64,000 bases of DNA, taken from Nanobdellota archaeon. GTDB lineage: Archaea > Nanobdellota > Nanobdellia > Pacearchaeales > GW2011-AR1. Made by a program: the position numbers and the translations under genes. Below the pieces are notes generated by a model. The model was not told the origin of the DNA. It saw only the letters and a list, made by a program, of their open reading frames with translations, and ran no database searches. Where the stretch lies: the NCBI GenBank assembly GCA_022561055.1, contig JADFRY010000002.1, positions 54,064 through 118,063 on the forward strand, written 5' to 3'. The number at the start of each line of letters is the position of its first letter. Position 1 is the stretch's first letter. Positions 9,003 through 51,594 of this stretch are shown here, in pieces.

Positions 9003-10547
9003 ATGGCAGAAAAAGAGGTTCAAAAAAAGACAAACAATAATGGTTTTGTCAAATGGTTTTCTGAGTTAAGCAGCAAAGATGTTGCAATTGCTGGAAACAA
9101 AGGTGTTATTCTAGCAGAAATGTATAATAACAATTTTCCTGTGCCGCCGGGATTTGTCATAACATCGAACGCTTACAAATATTTTATTGAAAAAAATTCT
9201 CTCAATAAAACAATCTCTGAGATTTTGAATAGCATAGATATCAAAGACAAAAATGCTTTAGAGAAAAATGCTAAAAAGATAAGAGAGATGATAATAAACG
9301 CCAACATCCAAGATGAAATGCGAGAAGAGATTCTCGAGTCTTATGAGGTTTTAGACGTAGATAAGAAAAAGTTTGTTAGTGCCAGTTCCAGAGCATTAGA
9401 TATTTTAAAAGCCTCCCATGAGCAACCATTTGTCGCAGTCAGAAGTTCTGCAACAATATTGGATAATGGAAAGACTCTCTTAAATGTAAAAGGAAATGAA
9501 AACTTAATTGAAAATATCAAGAAATGTTTTGCTTCTTTATTCACAGAGGAAGCAATCTATGAACGTGAAAAAAAAGAAATTCAACATGACGAATCTGAGA
9601 TGGCTGTCGTCGTGCAATGCATGGTTGACTCTGGTAAATCAGGAGTTATTTTCTCTAAAAACCCTTCAAAAGACGATGGCAATATCATAATAAAAGCTGT
9701 TTTTGGTTTAGGTCACGGAATTATTTCTGAAAGAATTTCTCCAGACTATTATGTTATTAATCCTAAAGAAGATTTCAAAATTATTGAAAGAAAGGTTTCT
9801 GATAAAAAATTTGCTTTAGCAAGAAATTCTTCAGGAAAGATTGGGGCTATTGAATTGGATGATGATTTAAGAAAGAAAAATGTTTTATCTGGCTACCAAA
9901 TTAAAATGCTTGCTCAGCTTGCGGCAGAAATTGACGAACATTTTGGAGAACCACAAGACATACAGTTTGCAATAAAAGAAAATGAGATTTATATTATTAA
10001 TTCGCGACCGATAGAAATTAAGTACGAAGAGGATGAAGAAATAAAAGAAGAAACAGAAAAAAAACCTGAAGAGAAAGAAGCGGAAGTGTCGAAGACTGAG
10101 AAGGAGGAAAAAAAGACGGCTCCTATTGTAACTGCGCCTTCTATCCCAGAAATGCAACCCGGCCAACTAGAAGACATAAACGAAGAAGAATTAATTTTAA
10201 AAGCCTTAGAAGAGGATGAGCAATCAGGAGATGTTCCAATACTTTTTTCTATGTCTGAAATAGAGTCTTTTTTTAAAAAAGATGAGTATCTGCCTGGATT
10301 AGAGAAAAAGGACGACGTTCCACCTTTGAATGAAGCAATACCTGTCAGCTCTGAAGATTTTCAGGATGAGGAAGAAGAGGAAATACTGGAAATTAAAAAA
10401 GATGAAATTGATGAAGAGCCAGAAGCGAATCCAGAATCAGGAGGACAACCAGACGAAATAGATGAGGTAGATGAAATGCTCGGCGATGCTGAAGTTAATG
10501 GCGATAGTCACGAAAAAGAAGAAGATGAAGTCTTAGATGTTTTTTAA
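9003..10547 (+). CDS. PEP/pyruvate-binding (PPDK_N, ATP-grasp) domain protein with about 180-aa acidic tail
   Basis: GNKGVILAEMYNNNFPVPPGFVITSNAYKYF is the N-terminal signature of PEP synthase/PPDK. No phospho-His or TIM-barrel domains follow. The C-terminus is E/D-rich. Confidence 0.65.
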   Translation: MAEKEVQKKTNNNGFVKWFSELSSKDVAIAGNKGVILAEMYNNNFPVPPGFVITSNAYKYFIEKNSLNKTISEILNSIDIKDKNALEKNAKKIREMIINANIQDEMREEILESYEVLDVDKKKFVSASSRALDILKASHEQPFVAVRSSATILDNGKTLLNVKGNENLIENIKKCFASLFTEEAIYEREKKEIQHDESEMAVVVQCMVDSGKSGVIFSKNPSKDDGNIIIKAVFGLGHGIISERISPDYYVINPKEDFKIIERKVSDKKFALARNSSGKIGAIELDDDLRKKNVLSGYQIKMLAQLAAEIDEHFGEPQDIQFAIKENEIYIINSRPIEIKYEEDEEIKEETEKKPEEKEAEVSKTEKEEKKTAPIVTAPSIPEMQPGQLEDINEEELILKALEEDEQSGDVPILFSMSEIESFFKKDEYLPGLEKKDDVPPLNEAIPVSSEDFQDEEEEEILEIKKDEIDEEPEANPESGGQPDEIDEVDEMLGDAEVNGDSHEKEEDEVLDVF

Positions 10548-18034: not shown

Positions 18035-18427
18035 ATGGGTTTGTTCAGAAGAAAAAAAGGTTCAGAAGTAATTGATTTTACTAATTTATATAACAGGGAG
18101 CTGATTAAACAATCAGGAGAAAGCGCAGAGAATGATGTCGTTGATCTAAGCACTAATCAGAGTCAGGATACATTCTCAAATTCAGATGATTTTTTGAGTG
18201 GGCTTGCCGGTGTTGGTGCTGTCGCAGATACACAAGTTCAAACATCTGAACGCATAGGAGCAGGGCCTATAACTTCTTCTTTGAGAAAAGCCAGGCAAGA
18301 ATCAAATATTCATGCGAAGTTTAATGAAATAAAATTGAAGATAGATGATACTGACTATAAATTAAATAATTTAATTGAGAAAGTCAAGGAAATTGAACAT
18401 AGGGTTAGGAAGTTTAAAGGAATCTAG
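18035..18427 (+). CDS. hypothetical protein
   Basis: 130-aa ORF with a well-placed TATA box. C-terminal coiled-coil-like segment. Confidence 0.4.
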   Translation: MGLFRRKKGSEVIDFTNLYNRELIKQSGESAENDVVDLSTNQSQDTFSNSDDFLSGLAGVGAVADTQVQTSERIGAGPITSSLRKARQESNIHAKFNEIKLKIDDTDYKLNNLIEKVKEIEHRVRKFKGI

Positions 18428-19071
18428 CGTTGGGCATCTATCAGGGAAGTTAGCATGACTCTCAATCCTCTTTCATATCCTGGTGTGGAGCTTGGAGCTG
18501 GCATAATTAATGGAACACCTTCACTCGGGTCTGAATCCAATATTTCTTCTAATGGCATGAACTTTATTTCTGATATCTCTTCAGTTTGGTATTTCATATC
18601 TTCAGCTTTCCTAGATTCAAAAAGCAAATAAAATTGCTGCAATTGTCTTTCGGGTGGACGCAAGCTGCCTTCCTCTCTCTTAAATTCTACGAAGACACTT
18701 CTTTCTAGATCATCTAAGTCATCCTGACAAATCTTTGTATAGAATTCTTCTTCGTAACATCTTCGTGCAGTCTCTCTTGAATTTTCTCCGTATTGCTGAT
18801 GTTCTGATGGAATTGACCATTTACCCGGATAAAAGCCAACATTATCACTTCTTTTCACAACTAAGAGTTTTAGATTTTCTTTAAGCACTCTTTTATCCTG
18901 AATCCCTTTTGGCTCATAAACTACTATTAAGCACGAAACAGGATGCCAAAGACCCTCTCGATGAACTATTCTTCTTGAAGCACTTCCGCAAATCACTCCA
19001 CTTCCTCTATCTATAAAAGGAAGTATTTCATCTTTAGTTTTAGTTTTAGTATATTGTGTTGCTACAACCAT
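18424..19071 (-). CDS. Nudix/IDI-like hydrolase fold protein (degenerate Nudix box)
   Basis: GLWHPVSCLIVV...LLVVKRSDNVGFYPGKWS...GENSRETARRCYEEEF follows the Nudix-fold pattern. Confidence 0.45.
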   Translation of the reverse strand: MVVATQYTKTKTKDEILPFIDRGSGVICGSASRRIVHREGLWHPVSCLIVVYEPKGIQDKRVLKENLKLLVVKRSDNVGFYPGKWSIPSEHQQYGENSRETARRCYEEEFYTKICQDDLDDLERSVFVEFKREEGSLRPPERQLQQFYLLFESRKAEDMKYQTEEISEIKFMPLEEILDSDPSEGVPLIMPAPSSTPGYERGLRVMLTSLIDAQR

Positions 19072-21970: not shown

Positions 21971-22408
21971 TTAGAGCTTCATTAGTTCAAATGCCTGGAG
22001 AGCTATATGCTTAACGTCCGACGGGATTGAATCGTCATGCAAATCTGACTTTGAAACCCATTTAGAGCCTCTTAGTTCGTCATTAATTTTAAGTTGCGCT
22101 GGATTTAATGCTTTGCAGATGTAAAAAAATGAGCAGTGGTCGTGGTCGCCGACTGAATGAACATTAACGTAAAAAGGTGTGGAAAGATTCTTTTTTGTAT
22201 TGCCTTCTAAAGGAATTTTAGATTTATTTAAGATTTCTATATCTAAATTAGTTTCTTCTTTTATTTCTCTTGCAAGGGCTTCATCTGGAGTTTCGTCTTT
22301 TTCTATGTGCCCACCGACTGGAAGCCATTTGTTTAATTTATTATGATGAATCAGAAGCAATTTGTCTTTATCAAATATGTAGCCTGTAACTACCAGATCT
22401 GTTTTCAT
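21971..22408 (-). CDS. Nudix hydrolase
   Basis: GGHIEKDETPDEALAREIKEETNL is the canonical Nudix box GX5EX7REUXEEXGU. Confidence 0.8.
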   Translation of the reverse strand: MKTDLVVTGYIFDKDKLLLIHHNKLNKWLPVGGHIEKDETPDEALAREIKEETNLDIEILNKSKIPLEGNTKKNLSTPFYVNVHSVGDHDHCSFFYICKALNPAQLKINDELRGSKWVSKSDLHDDSIPSDVKHIALQAFELMKL

Positions 22409-33599: not shown

Positions 33600-34337
33600 T
33601 TATGTTTTCCTTGATTCTATTAATCCATCTACATATGTAGCGCGTTCTTGAGCTTGAGGGTCTTCTTGCATTGCTTTGTTTACATAAGTTGTATATCTTC
33701 TTACAGCAACCATGACACCTGTATCGTCTCCGTATCCTAAGACGTCGGCAATATCTTGAAAAGGAATCTTTCCTCCACAACAAGGAACATGATTTAGATC
33801 TCTCAACCAAAAAGCGCATGCATCTCTGAGTTTCATAATTTTAGTATCCTTATATAAATCTCTTCTACCATCGTACTGTCTAATTCTTCGGAGCATATCT
33901 TCAGGATTTTCTATTTGCATTTCCTTTAATATACCTAAACAAATATTTACAAGAGATGGAGTTTGCTTCATTGGGTGTTGTGGTTCCATGAATAAATCTT
34001 TAATTGGGTCTTCTTTCATTACTTTGTCTACATAAACTGTATATCTTCTTACAGCGTCCACAGCACTTGCATGGCTTCTGTATCCTAAGACGTTAGCAAT
34101 ATCTGGAAAAGAAATCTTTCCTCCACAACAAGGAACATGATTTAGATCTCTCAACCAAAAAGCGCATGCATCTCTGAGTTTTACAGTTTTAGTATCCCTA
34201 TATAAAGCATTTCCACCATCGCGCTGTCTAATTCTTTGGAGCATATCTTCAGGATTTTCTATTTGCATTTCCTTTAATATACCTAAACAAATATTTACAA
34301 GAGATGGAATTTGTCTCCTTTGGTGTTGTGGTTTCAT
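33600..34337 (-). CDS. protein with two tandem DnaA-domain-IV-like (Bac_DnaA_C) HTH domains
   Basis: Each half has KLRDACAFWLRDL...ISFPDIANVLGYRSHASAVDAVRRY, which parallels DnaA RPRQ.AMYL...L.EIG..FGGRDHTTV.HA.RKI. TATA lies 25.5 nt upstream of the ATG. Confidence 0.55.
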   Translation of the reverse strand: MKPQHQRRQIPSLVNICLGILKEMQIENPEDMLQRIRQRDGGNALYRDTKTVKLRDACAFWLRDLNHVPCCGGKISFPDIANVLGYRSHASAVDAVRRYTVYVDKVMKEDPIKDLFMEPQHPMKQTPSLVNICLGILKEMQIENPEDMLRRIRQYDGRRDLYKDTKIMKLRDACAFWLRDLNHVPCCGGKIPFQDIADVLGYGDDTGVMVAVRRYTTYVNKAMQEDPQAQERATYVDGLIESRKT

Positions 34338-34352
34338 GAATAAATCTTTAAT
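33657..34352. repeat. head-to-tail tandem duplication, 2 x 348 bp
   Basis: Identical runs are offset by exactly 348 nt: 33765..33833 = 34113..34181 (69 nt) and 33890..33960 = 34238..34308 (71 nt). The unit includes 15-16 nt of the former 5' UTR. Confidence 0.85.
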
Positions 34353-34391
34353 TTTTTATTTATAAAAATTTAGGTTCTAATAGGGAGATCA

Positions 34392-39993: not shown

Positions 39994-40098
39994 ATGAAAA
40001 GACACGTTAGAAAATCACGTAGAAAGAGAAAGATGCTTAAGTTATTGCATAAAGGAAGGAAGAAAGTCAAAAGAATAACATCCAAAACACTTTTATAA
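39994..40098 (+). CDS. 34-aa highly basic peptide, possibly ribosomal protein eL41-like (not in ORF track)
   Basis: MKRHVRKSRRKRKMLKLLHKGRKKVKRITSKTLL. The extreme K/R content is typical of L41e-type peptides. Confidence 0.35.
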   Translation: MKRHVRKSRRKRKMLKLLHKGRKKVKRITSKTLL

Positions 40099-40119: not shown

Positions 40120-40881
40120 ATGGAGAAAGAAATATACTCTCATTCTAAGCTTTGGCTTTTTGAAAACTGTCCTGAGGCTTATAAAATAAAATACATTGAC
40201 AAAAAATTTCCTGAGTTACCGAAGAGTATTGAAGCTTTTTTAGGAGGAATGGTTCATAAAAGTTTGGAATGGCTATATAGAGAGGTAAAAGAAGAGAAAG
40301 AGGTTAACATGGATGATTTAATGAAAAATTTTGCAAATAATTGGATAAGTAATTTCTCTCATGATTTAAGAATTAATTGGGGCAAGTCAGAAGATTATTT
40401 TAATAAGGGAATAAAATTTTTAATTGATTATTATCAGAAGAACAAACCCTTTAATGATAATACAATTGAGATTGAAAAGAAAATTCTTTTTAATTTAGAT
40501 GAAGGTGCTGAATATAAAATTCGAGGATATATTGATAGAATTGTTTTAAATGAAAATGGCGAATATGAGGTGCATGATTATAAAACAAATGATTTTATGA
40601 AAACTCAGGAAGAGGTGGATGCAGATAGACAGCTTGCATTTTATCATTTGGGAATTAATGAACTCTTTGGGCAGCAGGCTAAAATAAAATTAATTTGGCA
40701 TTTTCTCGCCCACAATAAGACAATAGTTTCGAGGAGAAGTCAAGAACAATTAGAGCAGTTAAAAAAAGAAACTTTGGAGCTGATTAAAAAAATTGAAAAT
40801 ACAATAGAGTGGCCGGCGTGTGGAAAAAGATATTGCGATTGGTGCACGTATAAGAGAACTAATAGGATTGAGAATTATTAA
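40120..40881 (+). CDS. PD-(D/E)XK nuclease with Cas4/AddB-like cysteine cluster
   Basis: GYIDRIVLNENGEYEVHDYKT (D...(E/H)xK core), plus one N-terminal Cys (FENCPEAY) and C-terminal CGKRYCDWC. Confidence 0.7.
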   Translation: MEKEIYSHSKLWLFENCPEAYKIKYIDKKFPELPKSIEAFLGGMVHKSLEWLYREVKEEKEVNMDDLMKNFANNWISNFSHDLRINWGKSEDYFNKGIKFLIDYYQKNKPFNDNTIEIEKKILFNLDEGAEYKIRGYIDRIVLNENGEYEVHDYKTNDFMKTQEEVDADRQLAFYHLGINELFGQQAKIKLIWHFLAHNKTIVSRRSQEQLEQLKKETLELIKKIENTIEWPACGKRYCDWCTYKRTNRIENY

Positions 40882-40941
40882 TTGTTAATAAGTATTTTAG
40901 AGGATAATTATATTTAAATCCTGTTAATTGCACAAAACCTT

Positions 40942-42780
40942 ATGAGTCCTGACAGTAATAGAGGATATTGTTTAGTTTCTCAACAAATAAGAGATAAGAT
41001 TGAAAGGGGAGAGATAGTTATAAGAGGAGATTTCTCTAAAGACGAGAGGGGGTGGTTTAAAGATGATGATTTAGAGGGTAGAGTTCAACCCTCATCTTTT
41101 GAACCAATTATTGGAGATGAAGGATTTATTCTTGATACCGAGAGACTTGGAGGTTTCAGACCTCAAAGCAATCAAACTGTTTATAGGGCTTTATTGGAGT
41201 TACCTAGAAGACAGAGACTAAGAGTTAACATGTCTGGGGGGTTTATAGCACAGACTGGTTTTACTTATCTTTTTCCACTTGAAGAAAGAGTTACTCTTAA
41301 AAAAGGAGATAGAATGAAATCTTCTCCAAAAAGTAGCACTGGTAGACTATTCCCAAAAACTAGATTGATAGCAGACTATACTCCTAATTTTGACAGTGTT
41401 AATCATGTTGAAGGTGTTAATGATCCATTACAACTATGGCTTCTATTTCAGCCGACTTCATTTAACATTATTCTATATCCAGGAGATATATTAAACCAAT
41501 TAAGATTTTTTCAAGGTACGAATGCTTCATTAAGCCAGGAGGAAATTATTGAAGAATTTACGAAAAATCCTTTGCTTTATAAAAAAGTAGGAGATGACGA
41601 ACTTGTTCCTACCAAACCTGTAATTACTGATGATGGTTTACAAATAAATCTTGATTTAACTGGACAAAATACATATGGAATTGTAGGTTTACGGGCAAGA
41701 GACAATCCTAAACCTATAGAAATTGGTAAAGAACATGAGTTAGATCCTGAGGAATTTTTTGAACCTGTTACTGTAAAAAGAGGAAAAGTAAGATTTTATG
41801 AGGGAGAAAGATATTTGCTTGCTACTGCTGGTGTAATGAATATTCCCCCTCATCTTTGTGGTGAACTTAGAAGACATTTTGGTCTTGGGCTCAGAGCTGT
41901 TTGGGATGAGGCAGGTTACTTTGATAATGGGTTTAAGGGAAATGGAGTTCTTGAAGCGACTCCTCAAGAAGAAAAAGATATTGAGCTAGATCAAGGTGAT
42001 ACAATTCCATGCAGCGCACTAGAGCTTTTTCGAACTAGTGAAACTCCAGATAAACTTTATGGAACTAAAGAAGCTAAATCTCATTATTACGAACAGCTCG
42101 GACCTAAAGTATCAAAACACTTCAAACCGTTTGATTTTGCTCGTGCAGCAAAAGATTATCAAAAGCTTAATAGAGATGTGTTAGTACATGATGCTAGAGT
42201 ATTAATGAGTTTTAGAGAAGCCCGAGATGGATTTGAACCAATAAGGCCAGAAGTTGCTGAAAGAATTGTTAGAGAAATTGAAAGGAATGGTTTTTTCCAT
42301 TCAAGGTATGACTGTGAAGATGATGAAGAAGTTTTACAACCAATTCCTTATGTTTTGCTTTTTGGCTCCAATGGAACTGTTTTTACTTATGTAAGAGCAA
42401 CTAATATAAGAGATTATGGTGATGAAAGATTATTTGGAAAGTATTCAATTGGATTAGGAGGACATATTATTAGAGCAGACAGACCAAATTTTGTTATAAA
42501 CTGTTTAGAAAGAGAAGTAATAAGGGAAGAAGTTAAAATAGAAGGAGATCATTCTAAACCAAAACTTGTAGGAACTTTAATGGCTTATGATAAACCAGTA
42601 GACAGAGTTCATTTTGGTTTAATTTATACAATACATACTAATGGAAATATAATATCAAATGAGTCATCAATTACTTCTTTTGGAATGATGTCTTTTGATA
42701 AATTAGCTGAGAAGATTGATCCTTTTGAAACATGGAGTAGAGTTTTAGTTCCTCTTCTTCCTGAACTTTACAAGAGATAA
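40942..42780 (+). CDS. fusion protein: DCD-family dCTP deaminase-like N-domain plus YmaB-like Nudix-fold C-domain
   Basis: N-half: VQPSSFEPIIG, SSPKSSTGRLF, LNQLRFFQG (pattern of the roughly 360-aa 2'-deoxycytidine 5'-triphosphate deaminase family). C-half: LQPIPYVLLF...YVRA...GDERLFGKYSIGLGGHI...LEREVIREEV parallels B. subtilis YmaB. Confidence 0.6.
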   Translation: MSPDSNRGYCLVSQQIRDKIERGEIVIRGDFSKDERGWFKDDDLEGRVQPSSFEPIIGDEGFILDTERLGGFRPQSNQTVYRALLELPRRQRLRVNMSGGFIAQTGFTYLFPLEERVTLKKGDRMKSSPKSSTGRLFPKTRLIADYTPNFDSVNHVEGVNDPLQLWLLFQPTSFNIILYPGDILNQLRFFQGTNASLSQEEIIEEFTKNPLLYKKVGDDELVPTKPVITDDGLQINLDLTGQNTYGIVGLRARDNPKPIEIGKEHELDPEEFFEPVTVKRGKVRFYEGERYLLATAGVMNIPPHLCGELRRHFGLGLRAVWDEAGYFDNGFKGNGVLEATPQEEKDIELDQGDTIPCSALELFRTSETPDKLYGTKEAKSHYYEQLGPKVSKHFKPFDFARAAKDYQKLNRDVLVHDARVLMSFREARDGFEPIRPEVAERIVREIERNGFFHSRYDCEDDEEVLQPIPYVLLFGSNGTVFTYVRATNIRDYGDERLFGKYSIGLGGHIIRADRPNFVINCLEREVIREEVKIEGDHSKPKLVGTLMAYDKPVDRVHFGLIYTIHTNGNIISNESSITSFGMMSFDKLAEKIDPFETWSRVLVPLLPELYKR

Positions 42781-42830
42781 GTATTTTCTATTATAATAAT
42801 TTATTTAAAGAACTAACATTAAAATTGAAG

Positions 42831-43874
42831 ATGATAAAAATTGGGGTTACTGGAAAGTTATGTGCTGGAAAAGATACACTAGCTGAATATTTAAAAGAGA
42901 AAGGATTTGAACATATTTCTTTGTCAGATATGATTAGAGAGGAATGTAGAAAAAGAGGGTTAGAAGTGACCTTACAGAATTTAATAAGATTGGGCAATGA
43001 ACTGAGAAAAAAAGAAGGTAGCGATATCTTGGCTAAAATGGCTGTTGAAAAAATGAAGGAAGGAAATAATTATGTGGTGACTAGCATTAGAAATCCCTTG
43101 GAAGTTAAATATCTATCTAATTCTAAGAATTTTGTTCTGATTAATATTGAATCTCCTTTAGAAAAAAGATTTGAAAGAATGATTAAAAGAGGGAAGAAGG
43201 AAAGTGAGCCCAAGAGTCTTGAAGAATTTAAAAGAATTGAAGAGAGCCAATTAAGTTCTACTAATGAGAGTGACCAACAAATTAAAAATTGCATCGATAT
43301 GGCTAGACTGACGATTGTTAATGACGCTGATATAACTCTTTTTTTACAGAAGGTGGAAGAAAATTTTCTAAGAATTAAAGAAATGGCTTCTTTTGTTAGA
43401 CCTGGGTGGGATGAATATTTTGTAGGACTTATGAAGTCTGTTGGAAAAAGGGGAACGTGCGATAGAGGAAGAAGCGGATGTGTTATTGTTAAAGATAAGA
43501 GAATAATGGCTACCGGTTACGTCGGATCCCCGCCTGGACTCGCGCACTGTGATGATGTGGGACATTGGTTCAAGAAAGTGATTCATGAGGATGGGAGTAT
43601 CACTCAACATTGTATAAGAACCGTCCACTCAGAGGCAAATGCTATCGCGCAAGCAGCAAAAAACGGTATAAATATTGAAGGCTCAACTCTTTATTGTAAA
43701 CTAGAACCTTGCCTGGATTGCACAAAATTATTGATTAGCGCTGGAATAAAAAGAATCATCGCCGAAAAGAAATATCATGCATCGAAAGAATCTAGAGAGA
43801 TGTTAGAAGAAGCAGGGGTGGCATTAGAAGTTTTGGATGATGAGTTTGAGGGGTACGAAAGTGACGACAGCTAG
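42831..43874 (+). CDS. fusion protein: P-loop nucleotide-kinase-like N-domain plus dCMP/CMP-type zinc deaminase C-domain
   Basis: GVTGKLCAGKDT (Walker A), then HSEANAI and EPCLDCTKLL (HxE / PCxxC deaminase zinc motifs). TATA lies 25.5 nt upstream of ATG 42831. Confidence 0.75.
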   Translation: MIKIGVTGKLCAGKDTLAEYLKEKGFEHISLSDMIREECRKRGLEVTLQNLIRLGNELRKKEGSDILAKMAVEKMKEGNNYVVTSIRNPLEVKYLSNSKNFVLINIESPLEKRFERMIKRGKKESEPKSLEEFKRIEESQLSSTNESDQQIKNCIDMARLTIVNDADITLFLQKVEENFLRIKEMASFVRPGWDEYFVGLMKSVGKRGTCDRGRSGCVIVKDKRIMATGYVGSPPGLAHCDDVGHWFKKVIHEDGSITQHCIRTVHSEANAIAQAAKNGINIEGSTLYCKLEPCLDCTKLLISAGIKRIIAEKKYHASKESREMLEEAGVALEVLDDEFEGYESDDS

Positions 43875-43964
43875 CATAACCGAACTTTTATTTATAAATG
43901 GTTCGGATTTGTGTTGTGCGGAATATAAAACTTTAAATACCAATAAATTTTGTATAGCTTGTTA

Positions 43965-43980
43965 ACACAAGCTATTGTAT
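43965..43980 (+). promoter_or_regulatory. NrdR box 1 (ACACAAGCTATTGTAT)
   Basis: 13 of 16 matches to the 16-bp NrdR-box palindrome (approx acaCwAtATaTwGtgt). It sits upstream of nrdR. Confidence 0.5.
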
Positions 43981-43995
43981 TGTCGTCACAAAAAA

Positions 43996-44011
43996 ACACA
44001 ATATATTGTAG
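43996..44011 (+). promoter_or_regulatory. NrdR box 2 (ACACAATATATTGTAG)
   Basis: 14 of 16 matches to the NrdR-box consensus. Centre-to-centre spacing to box 1 is 31 bp, as in bacterial tandem boxes. It overlaps an AT-rich TATA-like core. Confidence 0.55.
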
Positions 44012-44045
44012 TGCTGTCGTAATTCAAAAGTTAAAAAGAGGTTAT

Positions 44046-44489
44046 ATGTTATGTCCATTTTGCTCTCATTCAGAAACAAAGGTTACAGATAAAAGGGATG
44101 CTGGCAGAATTACGAGAAGAAGAAGAGAGTGCTTAAAGTGTAGCAAGAGATTTTCCACGCATGAAAAGGTAGAGTGGAGCGAAATAAAAGTTATAAAGAA
44201 AGACGGAAAGAGAGAACCGTTCAGCCGAGAGAAAATTAAAATAGGCTTTATGAAGGCGTGTGAAAAAAGGCCTGTAAATGAGGAAAGAATTGAAAAGATG
44301 CTAAACTTTATTGAGGAAAAAGTGAGGAAGAGAGGAAAAGAGATTAATACGAGTGTTATTGGCGATTTGGTTTCTAAAGAATTAAAAAAAGTTGATAAGG
44401 TTGCATACATAAGATTTGCTTCTGTTTATATGGATTTCACAGATATTTCAGATTTTAAAAAAGAAGTAAGGGGGCTGTTGAAGAAATAA
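44046..44489 (+). CDS. nrdR: transcriptional repressor NrdR (zinc ribbon plus ATP-cone)
   Basis: MLCPFCSHSETKVTDKRD...RRRRECLKCSKRFSTHE plus an ATP-cone. The upstream extension to 43950 in the ORF track covers the NrdR boxes and is not credible. Confidence 0.9.
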   Translation: MLCPFCSHSETKVTDKRDAGRITRRRRECLKCSKRFSTHEKVEWSEIKVIKKDGKREPFSREKIKIGFMKACEKRPVNEERIEKMLNFIEEKVRKRGKEINTSVIGDLVSKELKKVDKVAYIRFASVYMDFTDISDFKKEVRGLLKK

Positions 44490-44697
44490 TACTCAATAAA
44501 AATTGTAAAAAGGGATTGAAAAAAGATGATGAAAAAAAGACGGCAAAGTAGAGTGTATGAAATTAGAAAAAATGAGAATCTTATTAAGAGTAGCACTTTT
44601 GAGAATAGTCGTATTGAAAATAGCTGTAATACTATATAGACAATAGAGAAGCAAAAATAATAAATATAAATAAAGATGAAAAAAAGGATGTGTTAAA

Positions 44698-47580
44698 ATG
44701 GCTGATATAAAAAAAGTAGAGGTTGATACCAATTCTCTAGATGGACTCGGTAGTGGTTTGGAACAAAAAGGTGTTGTGGGTGGCTTGCCAGAGTCAGACA
44801 CTGGATTAAAAATAGCAAGATATTTCACTAAACAGGGAATGAGTCCTTTTAATTTTGATGTAGAAAGAAAACCAATAAATTGGGTTTCTGAAGAAGTACA
44901 ATTTACTGATGATATGGGAAAAGTTATTTATACACAACCAAGTGTTAAGAAACCTGACTTCTGGAGCCCCCTGGCATTGAAAGTTGTGGCTAGTAGATAT
45001 TTCTGGGGTAATCAACAAAAAGGGGAGAGAGAAGATTCTGTAGAAAAATTGATTGATAGGGTTTCTAGGTTTTTTGAAAGGCAGGCATTAAAACAGAAAT
45101 ACTTTAATGAAGAAGAATCAAGAATCCTAAGAGATGAGATTGCTGCAATAACATTAAATCAATTATGCGTTTTCAATAGCCCAGTGTGGTTTAATGTTGG
45201 TATTCAGAAATATGATATTATAGCTGGAGGGGTTGCTCCTTGGAAATGGGATTCTGAAAAGGGAGAGGTTGTTGAATCAGAAAAAAATGAAGATAGACCA
45301 CAATGTTCAGCTTGTTTCATTCAAAGCATGGAAGATAATATGGACTCTATTATGGAAGTCCAGACAGCTGAAGCCATGTTATTTAAAGGCGGTTCTGGAA
45401 CAGGTTCAAACAGGTCTAATCTGAGAAGTTCTAAAGAAAGGCTTACGGGAGGAGGGATTTCTTCTGGTCCTGTGAGCTTTATGAGAGGTTATGATGCATA
45501 TGCTGGTGTTATCAAGTCAGGAGGTAAAACAAGAAGAGCAGCAAAAATGGAAATCTTAAATATGAACCATCCTGATATTATGGAGTTCATTGAAGCAAAA
45601 CAAAAAGAAGAGAAAAAAGCATGGGCTTTAATTGATGCAGGTTATGGTGGTGGCTTAAATGGGGAAGCATATAATAGTATCTCTTTCCAGAACAGTAATA
45701 TGAGTGCCAGGGCTTCTGATGAATTTATGGAGGCTATAAAAAAAGATGGTGACTGGCAGACTAAATATGTTTTAACAGGAGAAGTTTGTGAAACTTTAAA
45801 AGCTAAAGAAATGTTAAAGAAAATTGCTGAAGGGACTCATATTTGTGGGGACCCAGGCATGCAGTTTGATACAATAATCAATAAATATCATACTTGTAAG
45901 AACTCTGGAAGGATAAATGCTTCTAATCCTTGTTCGGAGTATATGTTTTTAGATGATACTGCATGTAACCTTGCTTCTCTCAATTTAATGAAATTTAGAA
46001 CAGAAGATGAAAAATTTGATGTGGAGAAGTTTAGAAAAGCTGTGAAGTTCTTTATTATTACAATGGAGCTCATTATTGATGGTGCTTCTTATCCTACCAA
46101 AAAAATAACACAGAGGTCACATGATTTTAGGACTCTTGGCTTGGGATATGCTAATCTTGGAGCTTTACTTATGTCTTTTGGTCTGCCTTATGATTCTGAT
46201 TCTGGCAGAGCTGTTGCTGCAGCAATAACTGCAATAATGTGTGGAGAGGCTTACAAAATTTCTGCACAATTAGCTTCTTTGGTTGGTACTTTTCCGAGAT
46301 ATGAAGAAAATAAAGAACCCATGTTAAAAGTTATGGAAATGCACCGAGACCATGTTAAAGATATAGAAGTTAATAAAATGCCTTCTGATTTGAGATATTT
46401 GGTTAATGATTCCTGGGATTCATGGAGTGAGGCTGTAAAATTAGGAGAAAAATATGGCTATAGAAATGCTCAAACAACTGTTATTGCTCCTACTGGAACA
46501 ATTGCATTCATGATGGATTGTGATACAACAGGAATTGAACCTGACATTGCATTAGTTAAGTACAAAGTTCTTGCTGGGGGAGGCATGTTAAAGATAGTAA
46601 ACAAAAGCGTGCCTTTGGCTTTGAGGGGTTTGGGTTATAATGAAGAACAAATAAAAGAGATTATTGATTATATTGACAAAAATGATATGATTGAGGGGAC
46701 TCCGCATTTGAAAGAAGATCATCTTGCGATTTTTGATTGTGCTTTCAAGCCTGCTAATGGTAAAAGGGCAATACAGTATAAAGCCCATATTAAGATGATG
46801 GGAGCATGTCAGCCTTTTGTTTCTGGAGCAATAAGCAAGACGATTAATATGCCTGAGCAATCAACAATTGATGAAATTGCCGATGCATATATTTTCTCTT
46901 GGGAACAGGGATTAAAATCTGTGGCAATTTATAGAGAAAACAGCAAGAGAAGCCAGCCTCTGAATACGCAGAAAACAGAAGGCGAGATGATAAGAAAAGA
47001 TGCAAAGATCCAAATGTCTCAGATGAGAATAAAACTTCCTCAAACAAGAAAATCCATAACTCACAAGTTTGACATTGGGGGACATGAGGGATACTTGACA
47101 GTTGGCTTATATGACGAAGGAAAACCTGGAGAGATTTTTATTACGATGCATAAGACTGGTTCTACAATCAGAGGCTTAATGGATGCGTGGGCAAATTCTA
47201 TTTCATTTAATTTACAATACGGGATTCCAGTCGAGTTTTTATTTAAGAAATTCAGACATCAGAAGTTTGAGCCTTCTGGATTTGTGAAGAACGTTAATGG
47301 AGGAAAACTGGATGAGAAAGGAAATAAGATAAAAACAGCATCGTCAATAGTTGATTATGTTGCACAGTTTATGCTAAATAACTTTGGTGAAGGCTCTGGT
47401 AATATAGAGTTTGAAGTTGAAACTTTGGGAAATCTAAAAGATGAGCAGAAAGCATTGGATGACTTCGGCGATGAAGGACTTATTTGTCCTTTGTGTGGAG
47501 GGACTGCAAAACGACTTGGAAATTGCACTATGATTTGCAATTCCTGTAAGCAGAAGACAACTGGTGGTTGTGGTGAGTGA
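44698..47580 (+). CDS. nrdJ: class II (adenosylcobalamin-dependent) ribonucleotide reductase
   Basis: NPCSEYMFLDDTACNLASLNL (active-site Cys/Glu block), TVIAPTGTI block, C-terminal CPLCGG...CNSC zinc-ribbon tail. Confidence 0.85.
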   Translation: MADIKKVEVDTNSLDGLGSGLEQKGVVGGLPESDTGLKIARYFTKQGMSPFNFDVERKPINWVSEEVQFTDDMGKVIYTQPSVKKPDFWSPLALKVVASRYFWGNQQKGEREDSVEKLIDRVSRFFERQALKQKYFNEEESRILRDEIAAITLNQLCVFNSPVWFNVGIQKYDIIAGGVAPWKWDSEKGEVVESEKNEDRPQCSACFIQSMEDNMDSIMEVQTAEAMLFKGGSGTGSNRSNLRSSKERLTGGGISSGPVSFMRGYDAYAGVIKSGGKTRRAAKMEILNMNHPDIMEFIEAKQKEEKKAWALIDAGYGGGLNGEAYNSISFQNSNMSARASDEFMEAIKKDGDWQTKYVLTGEVCETLKAKEMLKKIAEGTHICGDPGMQFDTIINKYHTCKNSGRINASNPCSEYMFLDDTACNLASLNLMKFRTEDEKFDVEKFRKAVKFFIITMELIIDGASYPTKKITQRSHDFRTLGLGYANLGALLMSFGLPYDSDSGRAVAAAITAIMCGEAYKISAQLASLVGTFPRYEENKEPMLKVMEMHRDHVKDIEVNKMPSDLRYLVNDSWDSWSEAVKLGEKYGYRNAQTTVIAPTGTIAFMMDCDTTGIEPDIALVKYKVLAGGGMLKIVNKSVPLALRGLGYNEEQIKEIIDYIDKNDMIEGTPHLKEDHLAIFDCAFKPANGKRAIQYKAHIKMMGACQPFVSGAISKTINMPEQSTIDEIADAYIFSWEQGLKSVAIYRENSKRSQPLNTQKTEGEMIRKDAKIQMSQMRIKLPQTRKSITHKFDIGGHEGYLTVGLYDEGKPGEIFITMHKTGSTIRGLMDAWANSISFNLQYGIPVEFLFKKFRHQKFEPSGFVKNVNGGKLDEKGNKIKTASSIVDYVAQFMLNNFGEGSGNIEFEVETLGNLKDEQKALDDFGDEGLICPLCGGTAKRLGNCTMICNSCKQKTTGGCGE

Positions 47581-47658
47581 TAGTAAATAATCAATTTCAA
47601 TTTTTATTCCTTTTTGTGAGTGCTATAGATTTAAATATAATATATTCCAGTTTCGTCT

Positions 47659-48168
47659 ATGACGAAACTACTTGACAGATTCAGAGATGCTGCACTTTTG
47701 AGAGGGAATTTTACTTTAAGAAGTGGAAGAACATCAGATTATTATATCAATGCTATGGATGCTTTTAAATTTCCAAGTTTGTTAAATGATTTAGCAGATG
47801 ATGTTTTTAATCTTTTTGATGAAAGGATTACTTGTGTAACTGCTACAGGTTTTGGAGGAACTCCATTGGCAACTACAATTTCTTCTAGGCATAACTTGCC
47901 TTTATGTTGTGTGAGAGATAAACCAAAGGTATATGGAACTAAAAGCCAAATTGAAGGGCATACTCCTACCAGAGAGGATTTTATTGCTTTGGTGGATGGT
48001 GTTTTTACAACTGGAGGCAGTTTAAGAGAAGCAACTGCTATTTTAGAAGAATTTCATCCTGCATCAATAGAATATGCTGTTATCCTTAATAGATCTGAAG
48101 AACAAAAACCAATGTTGCTCGATGGAGAAGTTAAGTATTTGTTTAGCGTGGCGGATATTTTGGAGTAG
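47659..48168 (+). CDS. orotate phosphoribosyltransferase-like type I PRTase
   Basis: LLRGNFTLRSGRTSDYYIN (PyrE-type N-terminus) and LVDGVFTTGGS (PRPP-binding loop, DG instead of DD). Confidence 0.65.
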   Translation: MTKLLDRFRDAALLRGNFTLRSGRTSDYYINAMDAFKFPSLLNDLADDVFNLFDERITCVTATGFGGTPLATTISSRHNLPLCCVRDKPKVYGTKSQIEGHTPTREDFIALVDGVFTTGGSLREATAILEEFHPASIEYAVILNRSEEQKPMLLDGEVKYLFSVADILE

Positions 48169-48208: not shown

Positions 48209-48472
48209 TTATGTGTTTTCTTCACCTTTTCCATAAACCTCTCTACGATGCCCGACATAATGAATAACAATTCCTTTAGGATGATGTGAATACATAACTC
48301 TATACTTTTTAAATCGAAAACTAAAAAATCCTTTTAATCTTCCCTTGAGTTGTTTGCCTTTAATTTTGCTTCTGAGCCTTTTCAATTCTTTTTTAATTTG
48401 TCTTTGATTACTTATGTGAAGCCCATGCAGGGTTCTTTTACCTTCTTCTGTAAATTGTATTGAAAAGTCCAT
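48209..48472 (-). CDS. RelE/ParE-family toxin
   Basis: LKG...FSFRFKKYRVMYSHHPKGIVIHYVGHRREVY follows the RelE/ParE C-terminal pattern (R.G.YR..Y......I..VGHR.E.Y). Confidence 0.7.
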   Translation of the reverse strand: MDFSIQFTEEGKRTLHGLHISNQRQIKKELKRLRSKIKGKQLKGRLKGFFSFRFKKYRVMYSHHPKGIVIHYVGHRREVYGKGEENT

Positions 48473-48714
48473 TAGACCTCATCAATAGAATAAAGTTTTC
48501 CTTTTTTCATATCTTTGATACTTTTTGCTAAGCTAGCCATAACGTCTGGATCCGAAAGTATCTCAATTGTTTCATAGAGTGAATCGTCTTGCATGTCTGT
48601 GTCGCCGGAAAGAATTCTCATGAGAACATCATTATACGATTCTCGTGGATGAGACTTGACTCTATCAAGTTTGGCTTTTACATTTCTATCCAAGGTTATT
48701 GTTGATATATTCAT
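48472..48714 (-). CDS. putative antitoxin
   Basis: 80-aa acidic protein immediately upstream of the toxin, with a 1-nt TAATG overlap at 48470..48474. Confidence 0.55.
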   Translation of the reverse strand: MNISTITLDRNVKAKLDRVKSHPRESYNDVLMRILSGDTDMQDDSLYETIEILSDPDVMASLAKSIKDMKKGKLYSIDEV

Positions 48715-51276: not shown

Positions 51277-51594
51277 ATGGCAGGAAATATTAAGGAATTG
51301 AATGCTAATAATTTTGATGATTTTATAAAAAAGGGTGATTGCATTGTGGATTTTTATGCTGATTGGTGTGGTCCTTGTAAAGCTATGGCTTCACATTTTG
51401 AGAAGGCTGTAGAGAAATTAAAAGATGTTAAATTTGGAAAGATTAATGTTGATGGCAACCAAAAATTAACTGGAAGATTTATGGTTATGTCAGTACCAAC
51501 GACTATCTTTTTCAAGAATAGAGAGCAAGTTGATAGGCATACTGGTGCAATGAGTTTTGAAGATATTAGAAATTTCTGTGAGAGAAATTTCTAA
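51277..51594 (+). CDS. trxA: thioredoxin
   Basis: DFYADWCGPCK active site. 105 aa. Confidence 0.85.
   Translation: MAGNIKELNANNFDDFIKKGDCIVDFYADWCGPCKAMASHFEKAVEKLKDVKFGKINVDGNQKLTGRFMVMSVPTTIFFKNREQVDRHTGAMSFEDIRNFCERNF

Follow-up and report, generated by a model that had tools for sequence, protein, structure and literature searches.

Does a run of nucleotide-handling genes on an archaeal contig form a dedicated island, perhaps an antiviral one, or does it belong to the ordinary supply of deoxynucleotides? The question is raised by positions 40120-48168 of a 64,000-nucleotide stretch from a Nanobdellota archaeon (GenBank assembly GCA_022561055.1, contig JADFRY010000002.1, positions 54,064 to 118,063 of the forward strand); this whole stretch is referred to below as the window. 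An earlier note, made from the letters alone, had described six consecutive plus-strand genes there, each with its own TATA-like site, and had offered two readings: (a) a module for balancing deoxynucleoside triphosphates (dNTPs), running from DNA degradation through C-to-U conversion to dUMP, with ribonucleotide reductase (RNR) under NrdR control, or (b) an antiviral function that depletes nucleotides. We denote the genes A (nuclease), B (fusion of a dCTP deaminase, DCD, to a Nudix domain), C (fusion of a kinase to a deaminase), nrdR, nrdJ and F (phosphoribosyltransferase, PRTase, resembling orotate phosphoribosyltransferase, OPRT). The best explanation, with a probability of about 0.68, is an NrdR-repressed nrdR-nrdJ unit standing beside two enzymes that convert C to U in pyrimidine deoxynucleotides, within a vertically inherited chromosome. 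The functional core consists of only four genes: B, C, nrdR and nrdJ.

All six open reading frames (ORFs) were found on the plus strand where the note had placed them, and profile searches upheld every domain it had named. Two starts were corrected. C begins at ATG 42831 (347 amino acids, aa), as its homologues do, and nrdR begins at ATG 44046 (147 aa) instead of TTG 43950, because the NrdR boxes fall within the longer TTG ORF. The features of the four-gene core are as follows.

40942..42126, plus strand: B residues 1-395, long (tandem two-barrel) dCTP deaminase module (Pfam DCD_N, DCD_C; PDB 2r9q)
42127..42780, plus strand: B residues 396-612, Nudix domain of YmaB/TM1382 type (COG4112; PDB 3e57)
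42831..43385, plus strand: C residues 1-185, P-loop domain resembling nucleoside monophosphate (NMP) kinases (Pfam AAA_18, AAA_17; PDB 3lw7, 3h0k)
43398..43874, plus strand: C residues 190-347, zinc dCMP deaminase domain of ComEB/T4-Cd type (Pfam dCMP_cyt_deam_1, 5e-22)
43965..43980, no strand assigned: NrdR box 1, ACACAAGCTATTGTAT, a match to ACACWATATATWGTGT with up to 3 mismatches
43996..44011, no strand assigned: NrdR box 2, ACACAATATATTGTAG, 35-50 bp upstream of the nrdR ATG
44046..44489, plus strand: nrdR, repressor with zinc ribbon and ATP-cone, 147 aa (TIGR00244, 173.2 bits, cutoff 124.65; Pfam Zn_ribbon_NrdR, ATP-cone)
44698..47580, plus strand: nrdJ, class II (B12-dependent) RNR, 960 aa (NF005122, 1220 bits, cutoff 859; TIGR02504, 584 bits, cutoff 400)

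The products of nrdR and nrdJ exceed the cutoffs of TIGR00244 and NF005122, in agreement with the identities first proposed for them. Within the window, ACACWATATATWGTGT (up to 3 mismatches) has only two matches, against a chance expectation of 1.07 unpaired matches per window. The two boxes start 31 bp apart with a 15-bp linker between them, and the pair spans 35-80 bp upstream of the nrdR ATG. A linker of 15-16 bp is the published architecture of NrdR boxes (PMC13584703; PMC9110341), and the occurrence of NrdR in "some archaea" has already been noted (PMC9110341). The same tandem pair, with starts 31-32 bp apart, lies upstream of nrdR in loci of other genomes (L005, L020, L028, L034, L042, L048 and L083; the prefix L numbers such loci throughout), in L042 with one box at 0 mismatches, and no such pair was found elsewhere in approximately 1.9 Mb of fetched loci. 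Box 2 contains the sole TATA-like sequence upstream of nrdR.

A perfect 9-bp inverted repeat, ATAGCTTGT-TAAC-ACAAGCTAT (43954-43975), overlaps the left half of box 1; it might serve gene C as a terminator-like element or extend the operator. In L020, L034 and L042 (at about 9200-10000), nrdR-RNR is divergent from the gene for the DCD-Nudix fusion and the tandem boxes sit in the shared intergenic region of 200-280 bp; judging by this arrangement, NrdR might influence the DCD-Nudix gene in those genomes. We did not adopt NrdR control of B itself: the boxes are 150-200 bp from the start of B in these three loci and lie downstream of both B and C in the window. The RNR ORF of L034 (2886-9233, minus strand) is 6.3 kb long, and a SufB-like ORF (L006:13860-16496, plus strand) carries an intein-like insertion (CLTGDSKIF...). 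Because the two ORFs clustered via a shared insert, these DPANN genes probably contain inteins.

Each gene of the block appears to have a promoter of its own, the usual arrangement in this genome. A TATA-like hexamer lies 11-45 nt upstream of five of the six starts, so that the promoter elements described earlier are real; they are typical of the genome, however, since such hexamers precede 15 of the 29 other plus-strand gene starts in the window and occur in 14% of random 35-nt windows. The GC content of the block (0.33-0.36) is the same as that of the rest of the window. A scan for sigma-70 promoters was uninformative (37 sites, 32.8 expected). At gathering thresholds, Rfam matched only a tRNA-Lys in the window, with no riboswitch or small RNA in the 171-bp and 208-bp gaps.

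The neighborhoods of B and C in other genomes tie them to the RNR genes. An alignment of B, used to scan genomes, yielded 79 loci, of which 44 at species level were kept (full-length fusion, at least 6 kb of flank), and neighbors were counted within 5 kb of B. NrdR was found in 11 of the 44 loci (25%), class II RNR in 10 (23%), thioredoxin in 8 (18%), a kinase or kinase-deaminase in 7, a ThyX-like protein in 3, Tmk in 2 and nucleoside diphosphate kinase (NDK) in 1; 21 of the loci had at least one neighbor related to dNTPs. Nuclease A and PRTase F each occurred in a single locus (1/44). For C, we compared 80 metagenomic loci centered on the gene. C-NrdR-NrdJ appears in L083 in the order seen in the window, and the combinations Tmk-ThyX-C, B-C-thioredoxin and NrdR-RNR-C occur in L089, L096 and L107, respectively. 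In bacterial-looking loci, C has PurE (12 loci), LOG (14), methylthioadenosine/S-adenosylhomocysteine (MTA/SAH) nucleosidase (8), TadA (7) and Der as neighbors. The linkage of B, C, NrdR and RNR is thus loose but significant, and it does not extend to A and F. Conservation in relatives therefore holds for the four-gene core and fails for the six-gene island as a unit. Likewise, the dNTP-balancing module with RNR under NrdR control survives for the four middle genes, through the boxes and the recurrent neighbors, and not for its DNA-degradation step (A) or its PRTase (F).

The alternative that holds up best is that six housekeeping genes became adjacent by chance and that no module exists beyond nrdR-nrdJ. 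The genes do have TATA-like elements of their own, their whole order is not conserved, 23 of the 44 B loci lack a dNTP gene within 5 kb, and most C loci have unrelated neighbors. On the other side stand the frequency of NrdR near B, 25% where about 1% is estimated for one gene in a genome of approximately 1,000 genes, and the many combinations in which B, C, a stand-alone kinase, ThyX, Tmk, thioredoxin and NDK recur or are fused. We regard this alternative as rather unlikely.

Gene B (40942-42780) encodes a protein of 612 aa, the fusion of a DCD-type deaminase to a YmaB-like Nudix domain that the note had called. Its deaminase part is identified by Pfam, where DCD_N and DCD_C together span residues 12-395 (65.5 bits against a gathering threshold of 21.4 and 63.6 against 22), and by the long dCTP deaminase of A. 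tumefaciens (2r9q), which it matches in sequence (1.7e-26) and in fold (TM-score 0.87-0.89). The fold comparisons rest on an AlphaFold2 model built on 72 homologues (predicted local distance difference test score, pLDDT, 93; predicted TM-score, pTM, 0.83). In its N-half, B retains P-K130-S131-S132-x-G134-R135, with Leu168 in place of the Glu of 2r9q; in its C-half, it retains A324-G325-x-F-D328-x-G-F...L-E338 and has HFGLGL where the Dcd:dut enzyme of Mycobacterium tuberculosis (Mtb) has KSSLGR. Only two motifs are universal among 27 long DCDs compared, PKSSxGR in the N-half and AGFIDxGF..LE in the C-half, and the N-half Glu varies even among the bacterial ones. Residues K130, S131, R135, D328 and E338 are invariant across the 72 homologues. 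Active sites of the dUTPase superfamily are located at inter-subunit clefts (PMC4827122). Because the two halves hold the universal motifs and sites of the superfamily form at such clefts, we infer that each B chain carries one composite DCD site, which would be intact.

The Nudix part of B was recognized through TM1382 (3e57, "putative Nudix hydrolase"), in sequence (E = 1.1e-11) and in fold (TM-score 0.87 for the model); the next fold matches of residues ~400-612 are YfcD, DR0079, MutT and NudI. It retains the invariant residues of the TM1382 family: E459, Q466, P469, Y470, R485, R496, G507, H508, H557, E596 and W598. Its Nudix box is a variant, G507-x5-D513-x10-R524-E525-V-xx-E529-E530, of the canonical GX5EX7REUXEEXGU, with R524 and E530 invariant in the 72 homologues and E525 and E529 present in at least 90%. 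Homologues of B are labeled "dCTP deaminase/predicted NUDIX family phosphoesterase" by JGI, the latter half of which we take to be the COG4112/YmaB label. Over 120 full-length fusions of this kind, at 47-61% identity, were found in Pace-, Woese- and Nanoarchaeota; the family is conserved in length, and in a few members an NDK domain is added at the C-terminus. A tblastn search with B against phage genomes gave no match.

Several related arrangements accompany B. Two proteins (P0029 and P0039, ~765 aa) are triple fusions of DCD, Nudix and NDK. Stand-alone 220-aa Nudix genes of YmaB/TM1382 type, with the canonical REUxEE, adjoin B divergently in L028 (9285-9947, minus strand) and L008 (9273-9932, minus strand), so that these two genomes carry free as well as fused copies. 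The DPANN-specific "WLLxQP" subtype of long DCD, to which B belongs, also occurs unfused (~385-400 aa) in L053-L068 (e.g., L053:9962-11122), which makes the Nudix fusion the derived state within the subfamily; a stand-alone PRK08356-like kinase gene at times lies next to such an unfused DCD (L053:11532-12119). In L023 (7959-9641), the gene directly upstream of B joins a kinase domain like that of C to a canonical long DCD.

Gene C likewise has the architecture first described for it, a P-loop kinase-like domain followed by a dCMP-type zinc deaminase, with AAA_18 at residues 6-133 and dCMP_cyt_deam_1 at 195-313. The kinase half is closest to a Sulfolobus AdkA-like/UPF0200 protein bound to AMP (3lw7, 3h0k; fold TM-score 0.83), with dephospho-CoA kinases and UMP/CMP kinases next in line. 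For the deaminase half, the best match is the dCMP deaminase of S. mutans (2hvv; 2.5e-28, 38% identity, TM-score 0.86). On the ComEB profile TIGR02571, C scores 117 bits (cutoff 219); by its sequence we class it as having a dCMP-deaminase-type domain and, by TIGR02571, not as a ComEB orthologue. The P-loop G13-K14-D15, R36, R59, R87, R113, R120, H266-x-E268 and P293-C294-xx-C297 are all present, and of these G13-K14, the five arginines, H266-x-E268 and P293-C294-xx-C297 are invariant in 28 C homologues. An exhaustive search with C returned 302 cluster representatives at E ≤ 1e-30; at least approximately 60 of the best 150 are full-length two-domain proteins, all of 316-377 aa. The family is large, conserved in length, and found in archaea and bacteria among housekeeping genes. 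About 12 C loci encode kinase and deaminase in separate adjoining genes, which argues for functional coupling.

Taken together, the four genes suggest a pathway from ribonucleotide reduction to dUMP. RNR with thioredoxin would make dCDP/dCTP, and the DCD module of B would deaminate dCTP to dUTP at its composite site (N-half KSSxGR, C-half AGFxDxGF...LE), from which the Nudix domain would release dUMP and pyrophosphate. C would deaminate dCMP to dUMP, and its kinase domain may phosphorylate (d)NMPs at the dCMP branch point or bind dCTP/dTTP as effectors. The dUMP would pass to ThyX and Tmk, presumably encoded elsewhere; both neighbor B or C in relatives. At high dATP, NrdR would bind its boxes and repress nrdR-nrdJ, box 2 overlapping the likely TATA element. 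A two-step reaction in B is consistent with the reported dNTP pyrophosphohydrolase activity of YmaB, with the nrdIEF-ymaB operon and with the DCD-Nudix-NDK fusions.

Several observations weigh against this pathway. The substrates of the Nudix domain of B and of the kinase domain of C are predictions. The DCD module scores 129 bits on NF005734, below the 283-bit cutoff, and canonical long DCDs adjoin B on its upstream side in L036 and L023, the one in L036 scoring 311 bits on the same profile, so that B is perhaps not just "the" dCTP deaminase. The C-terminal 217 aa of B alone have no Pfam match, PF00293 missing the Nudix box, which has a one-residue insertion (REVxxEE) and looks degenerate in the divergent L042 and L070. 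The gap between nrdR and nrdJ is 208 bp and contains a TATA-like site, so that co-transcription and NrdR control of nrdJ are putative. The six-gene order is not conserved, and even in L083, the closest relative, B and C are not adjacent. The 64-kb window lacks thyX, thyA, tmk, ndk and dut genes; when proteins of relatives were used to look for thyX, tmk and NDK there and in both flanks, thioredoxin alone was recovered.

Some of these points fit a second alternative, that B is not a two-step dCTP-to-dUMP enzyme. One of its modules could be a non-catalytic sensor, or the Nudix domain could act on another dNTP, for example, turning dCTP into dCMP that feeds C, or dATP into dAMP as for YmaB, which has been proposed to make dAMP (PMC5960316); pools or RNR allostery would then be tuned differently. 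Such a role would suit a diverged paralogue that stands beside canonical long DCDs (L036, L023), has a variant Nudix box that is degenerate in L042 and L070, and in L028 and L008 lies beside stand-alone YmaB-like paralogues with canonical REUxEE. Loss or change of either activity agrees poorly, however, with the retention in B of all universal long-DCD motifs and with the conservation, across the 72 homologues, of both the deaminase residues and the Nudix residues listed above. The NDK triple fusions, in turn, fit a chain dCDP → dCTP → dUTP. We consider this alternative quite improbable and keep the two-step reaction as the working reading of B.

The third alternative takes C for an anti-phage dCTP deaminase of the kind of DcdV and the enzyme of Tal et al., depleting the deoxycytidine pool on infection, with the Cas4-like nuclease as its defense context. 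Profile matches give it some appeal: the PADLOC dCTPase profile PDLC02373 matches both domains of C (8.6e-44, 148 bits, profile positions 155-484 of 630), the match to NF041025 covers the kinase domain, and a kinase plus zinc deaminase in one chain is the architecture of those enzymes. A ParE/VapB toxin-antitoxin pair follows 40 bp after the block. On NF041025, however, C reaches 109.4 bits against a cutoff of 400, and its 347 aa fall short of the defense prototypes (532 and 576 aa) and of the published family filter (>350 aa). The gap between B and C, only 50 bp, is too small for a DifV-like regulator. The two-domain homologues of 316-377 aa form at least approximately 60 deep clusters, and their neighbors are RNR, NrdR, ThyX, Tmk and thioredoxin or, in bacteria, the housekeeping genes named above, with no recurrent defense gene. 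A tblastn search with C against plasmids gave matches to the deaminase domain only, none of full length, and B had no match in phages. Nuclease A stays below the Cas4 cutoff (35.5 against 65), and the window contains no CRISPR-like array or cas gene. A role in defense is thus highly improbable; reading (b), together with the "island" framing, is not supported and should be dropped.

The genes that flank the core, and the probable reductant of RNR, are the following.

40120..40881, plus strand: A, PD-(D/E)XK (RecB/Cas4-like) nuclease with four Cys (Pfam PDDEXK_1, E = 4e-28)
47659..48168, plus strand: F, OPRT-like type I PRTase (pyrE TIGR00336, 89.4 bits, below the cutoff of 106.8)
51277..51594, plus strand: thioredoxin, probable RNR reductant (Pfam Thioredoxin), 3.7 kb downstream

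Because A and F each recur in only one of the 44 B loci (A in L007, and F as a weak homologue in L048), they are chance neighbors of the core, unrelated to it and with promoters of their own. The description of A as Cas4/AddB-like stands as far as the PDDEXK_1 fold family and the four cysteines (C17, C234, C239, C242) go; with a score under the TIGR00372 cutoff, membership extends to the superfamily and not to Cas4. Its motifs, read from the sequence, are D139, D153-x-K155 and Q171xxxY175, and a sequence search of PDB with A gave no match. For F, the OPRT-like assignment held, in that all of its PDB matches are OPRTs (5e-13 or weaker), although the pyrE cutoff was not reached.

The context of the block is housekeeping. 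The remaining window genes include those for RNA polymerase subunits H, B and A, ribosomal proteins, elongation factor 2 (EF-2), three aminoacyl-tRNA synthetases, the thioredoxin and PCMT. In the nearest relatives (L005, L007, L028, L048 and L083), nrdR-nrdJ is repeatedly surrounded by genes for cysteine desulfurase, PCMT, thioredoxin and RNA polymerase, and this recurrence indicates vertical synteny, not a mobile island. The block is part of an ordinary, vertically inherited DPANN (Nanoarchaeota) chromosome; B and C match proteins of a Nanoarchaeota metagenome-assembled genome at 100% identity. Pfam gene tables of the window contain no cas or restriction-modification families, and tandem-repeat finding across it gave no array of CRISPR-like period. 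The sole defense-like item in the window is the pair mentioned above, a ParE/RelE-like toxin (87 aa) and a VapB-type antitoxin (80 aa) at 48209-48714 on the minus strand, directly after F and on the opposite strand from it.

Three further features of the window were observed. An uncalled ORF of 34 aa, MKRHVRKSRRKRKMLKLLHKGRKKVKRITSKTLL, extremely basic and without a Pfam match, lies at 39994-40098 (plus strand), with a TATA-like site ~25 nt upstream; its stop overlaps the TATA-like element of gene A. Its N-terminal motif, M[KR][KR][HT][VI]R[KR]SRRxRK, recurs with the start codon aligned in L028 (3403-3462), L048 (3776-3835) and L083 (2979-3020) (tblastn, E = 0.05-0.2), each time a few kb upstream of nrdR, and the ORF may be an unannotated small ribosomal-like protein. 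Two tandem copies of a 348-bp unit (89% match) at 33658-34353 lie within a 245-aa ORF without a Pfam match (33600-34337, minus strand), which looks like an internal duplication in a protein of unknown function. About 20 kb upstream of the block, two canonical NUDIX (PF00293) genes (18424-19071 and 21971-22408, both minus strand) and a CYTH-domain gene stand among aminoacyl-tRNA synthetase genes.

What may be new here lies in the two fusions. The NrdR-NrdJ unit is of a known kind, whereas B and C consist of known superfamilies in architectures that we did not find described: literature searches on TM1382/COG4112 and on DPANN dCTP deaminases returned nothing on either fusion. In databases, the two fusions already carry generic annotation. 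It is possible, though we hold it only tentatively, that the two fusions provide the dUMP for thymidylate in DPANN archaea, that the DCD-YmaB-Nudix protein, sometimes with NDK, replaces Dcd plus Dut, and that the ~345-aa kinase-dCMP deaminase is the widespread housekeeping source of DcdV-type enzymes. If so, YmaB/COG4112 would be assigned to the RNR pathway as a pyrimidine dNTP pyrophosphatase, and the kinase domain of C would be a dCMP branch-point kinase or a dCTP/dTTP sensor. The proposal offers a testable function for two large uncharacterized fusion families, found in small genomes of the DPANN or candidate phyla radiation (CPR) type, and for the YmaB/TM1382 family. It also places a putative NrdR operator of bacterial type in front of an archaeal gene. 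As a housekeeping relative, C bears on the origin of DcdV-type defense enzymes; the cross-match of a defense profile to it (PADLOC dCTPase, 148 bits) implies that pipelines may over-call nucleotide-depletion defense in archaeal, CPR and some bacterial genomes.

Compared with known systems, the nrdR-nrdJ unit most resembles a bacterial NrdR regulon: its NrdR exceeds the equivalog cutoff and combines a zinc ribbon with an ATP-cone, and its operator, two palindromic boxes of 16 bp separated by 15 bp, is placed for autoregulation. In contrast to the bacterial case, an archaeal host requires the boxes to act on a promoter served by TATA-binding protein and transcription factor B (TBP/TFB). The anti-phage dCTP deaminases (DcdV of V. 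cholerae; Tal et al.) share with C an N-terminal P-loop kinase and a C-terminal zinc deaminase, both detectably homologous. C differs from them in being ~200 aa shorter, in scoring a quarter of the family cutoff and in having no upstream regulator locus; its deaminase is nearest the housekeeping ComEB type, and its family is broadly conserved in housekeeping synteny, not in defense islands.

B has three points of comparison. B. subtilis YmaB belongs to the nrdI-nrdE-nrdF-ymaB operon, and preliminary data only indicate a dNTP pyrophosphohydrolase activity (PMC5960316). YmaB and TM1382 are of the same Nudix subfamily as B, and the B. subtilis operon provides the same genomic link to RNR, but in B the Nudix domain is fused to a dCTP deaminase, has a one-residue insertion in its box and accompanies a class II, NrdR-controlled archaeal RNR. 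With the long-type dCTP deaminases (PRK07559; 2r9q), B shares the tandem DCD_N + DCD_C fold and the motifs PKSSxGR and AGFxDxGF..LE; it falls, however, in the DPANN-specific "WLLxQP" subfamily below the equivalog cutoff, whose members are either fused (~600 aa) or unfused. Finally, the bifunctional DCD-DUT enzymes have the net reaction predicted for B, dCTP to dUMP without release of dUTP, and a deaminase of the same dUTPase-superfamily fold. They accomplish it in one trimeric active site, whereas B would divide it between a Nudix domain and a tandem-barrel long DCD, which are fused but unrelated in fold.

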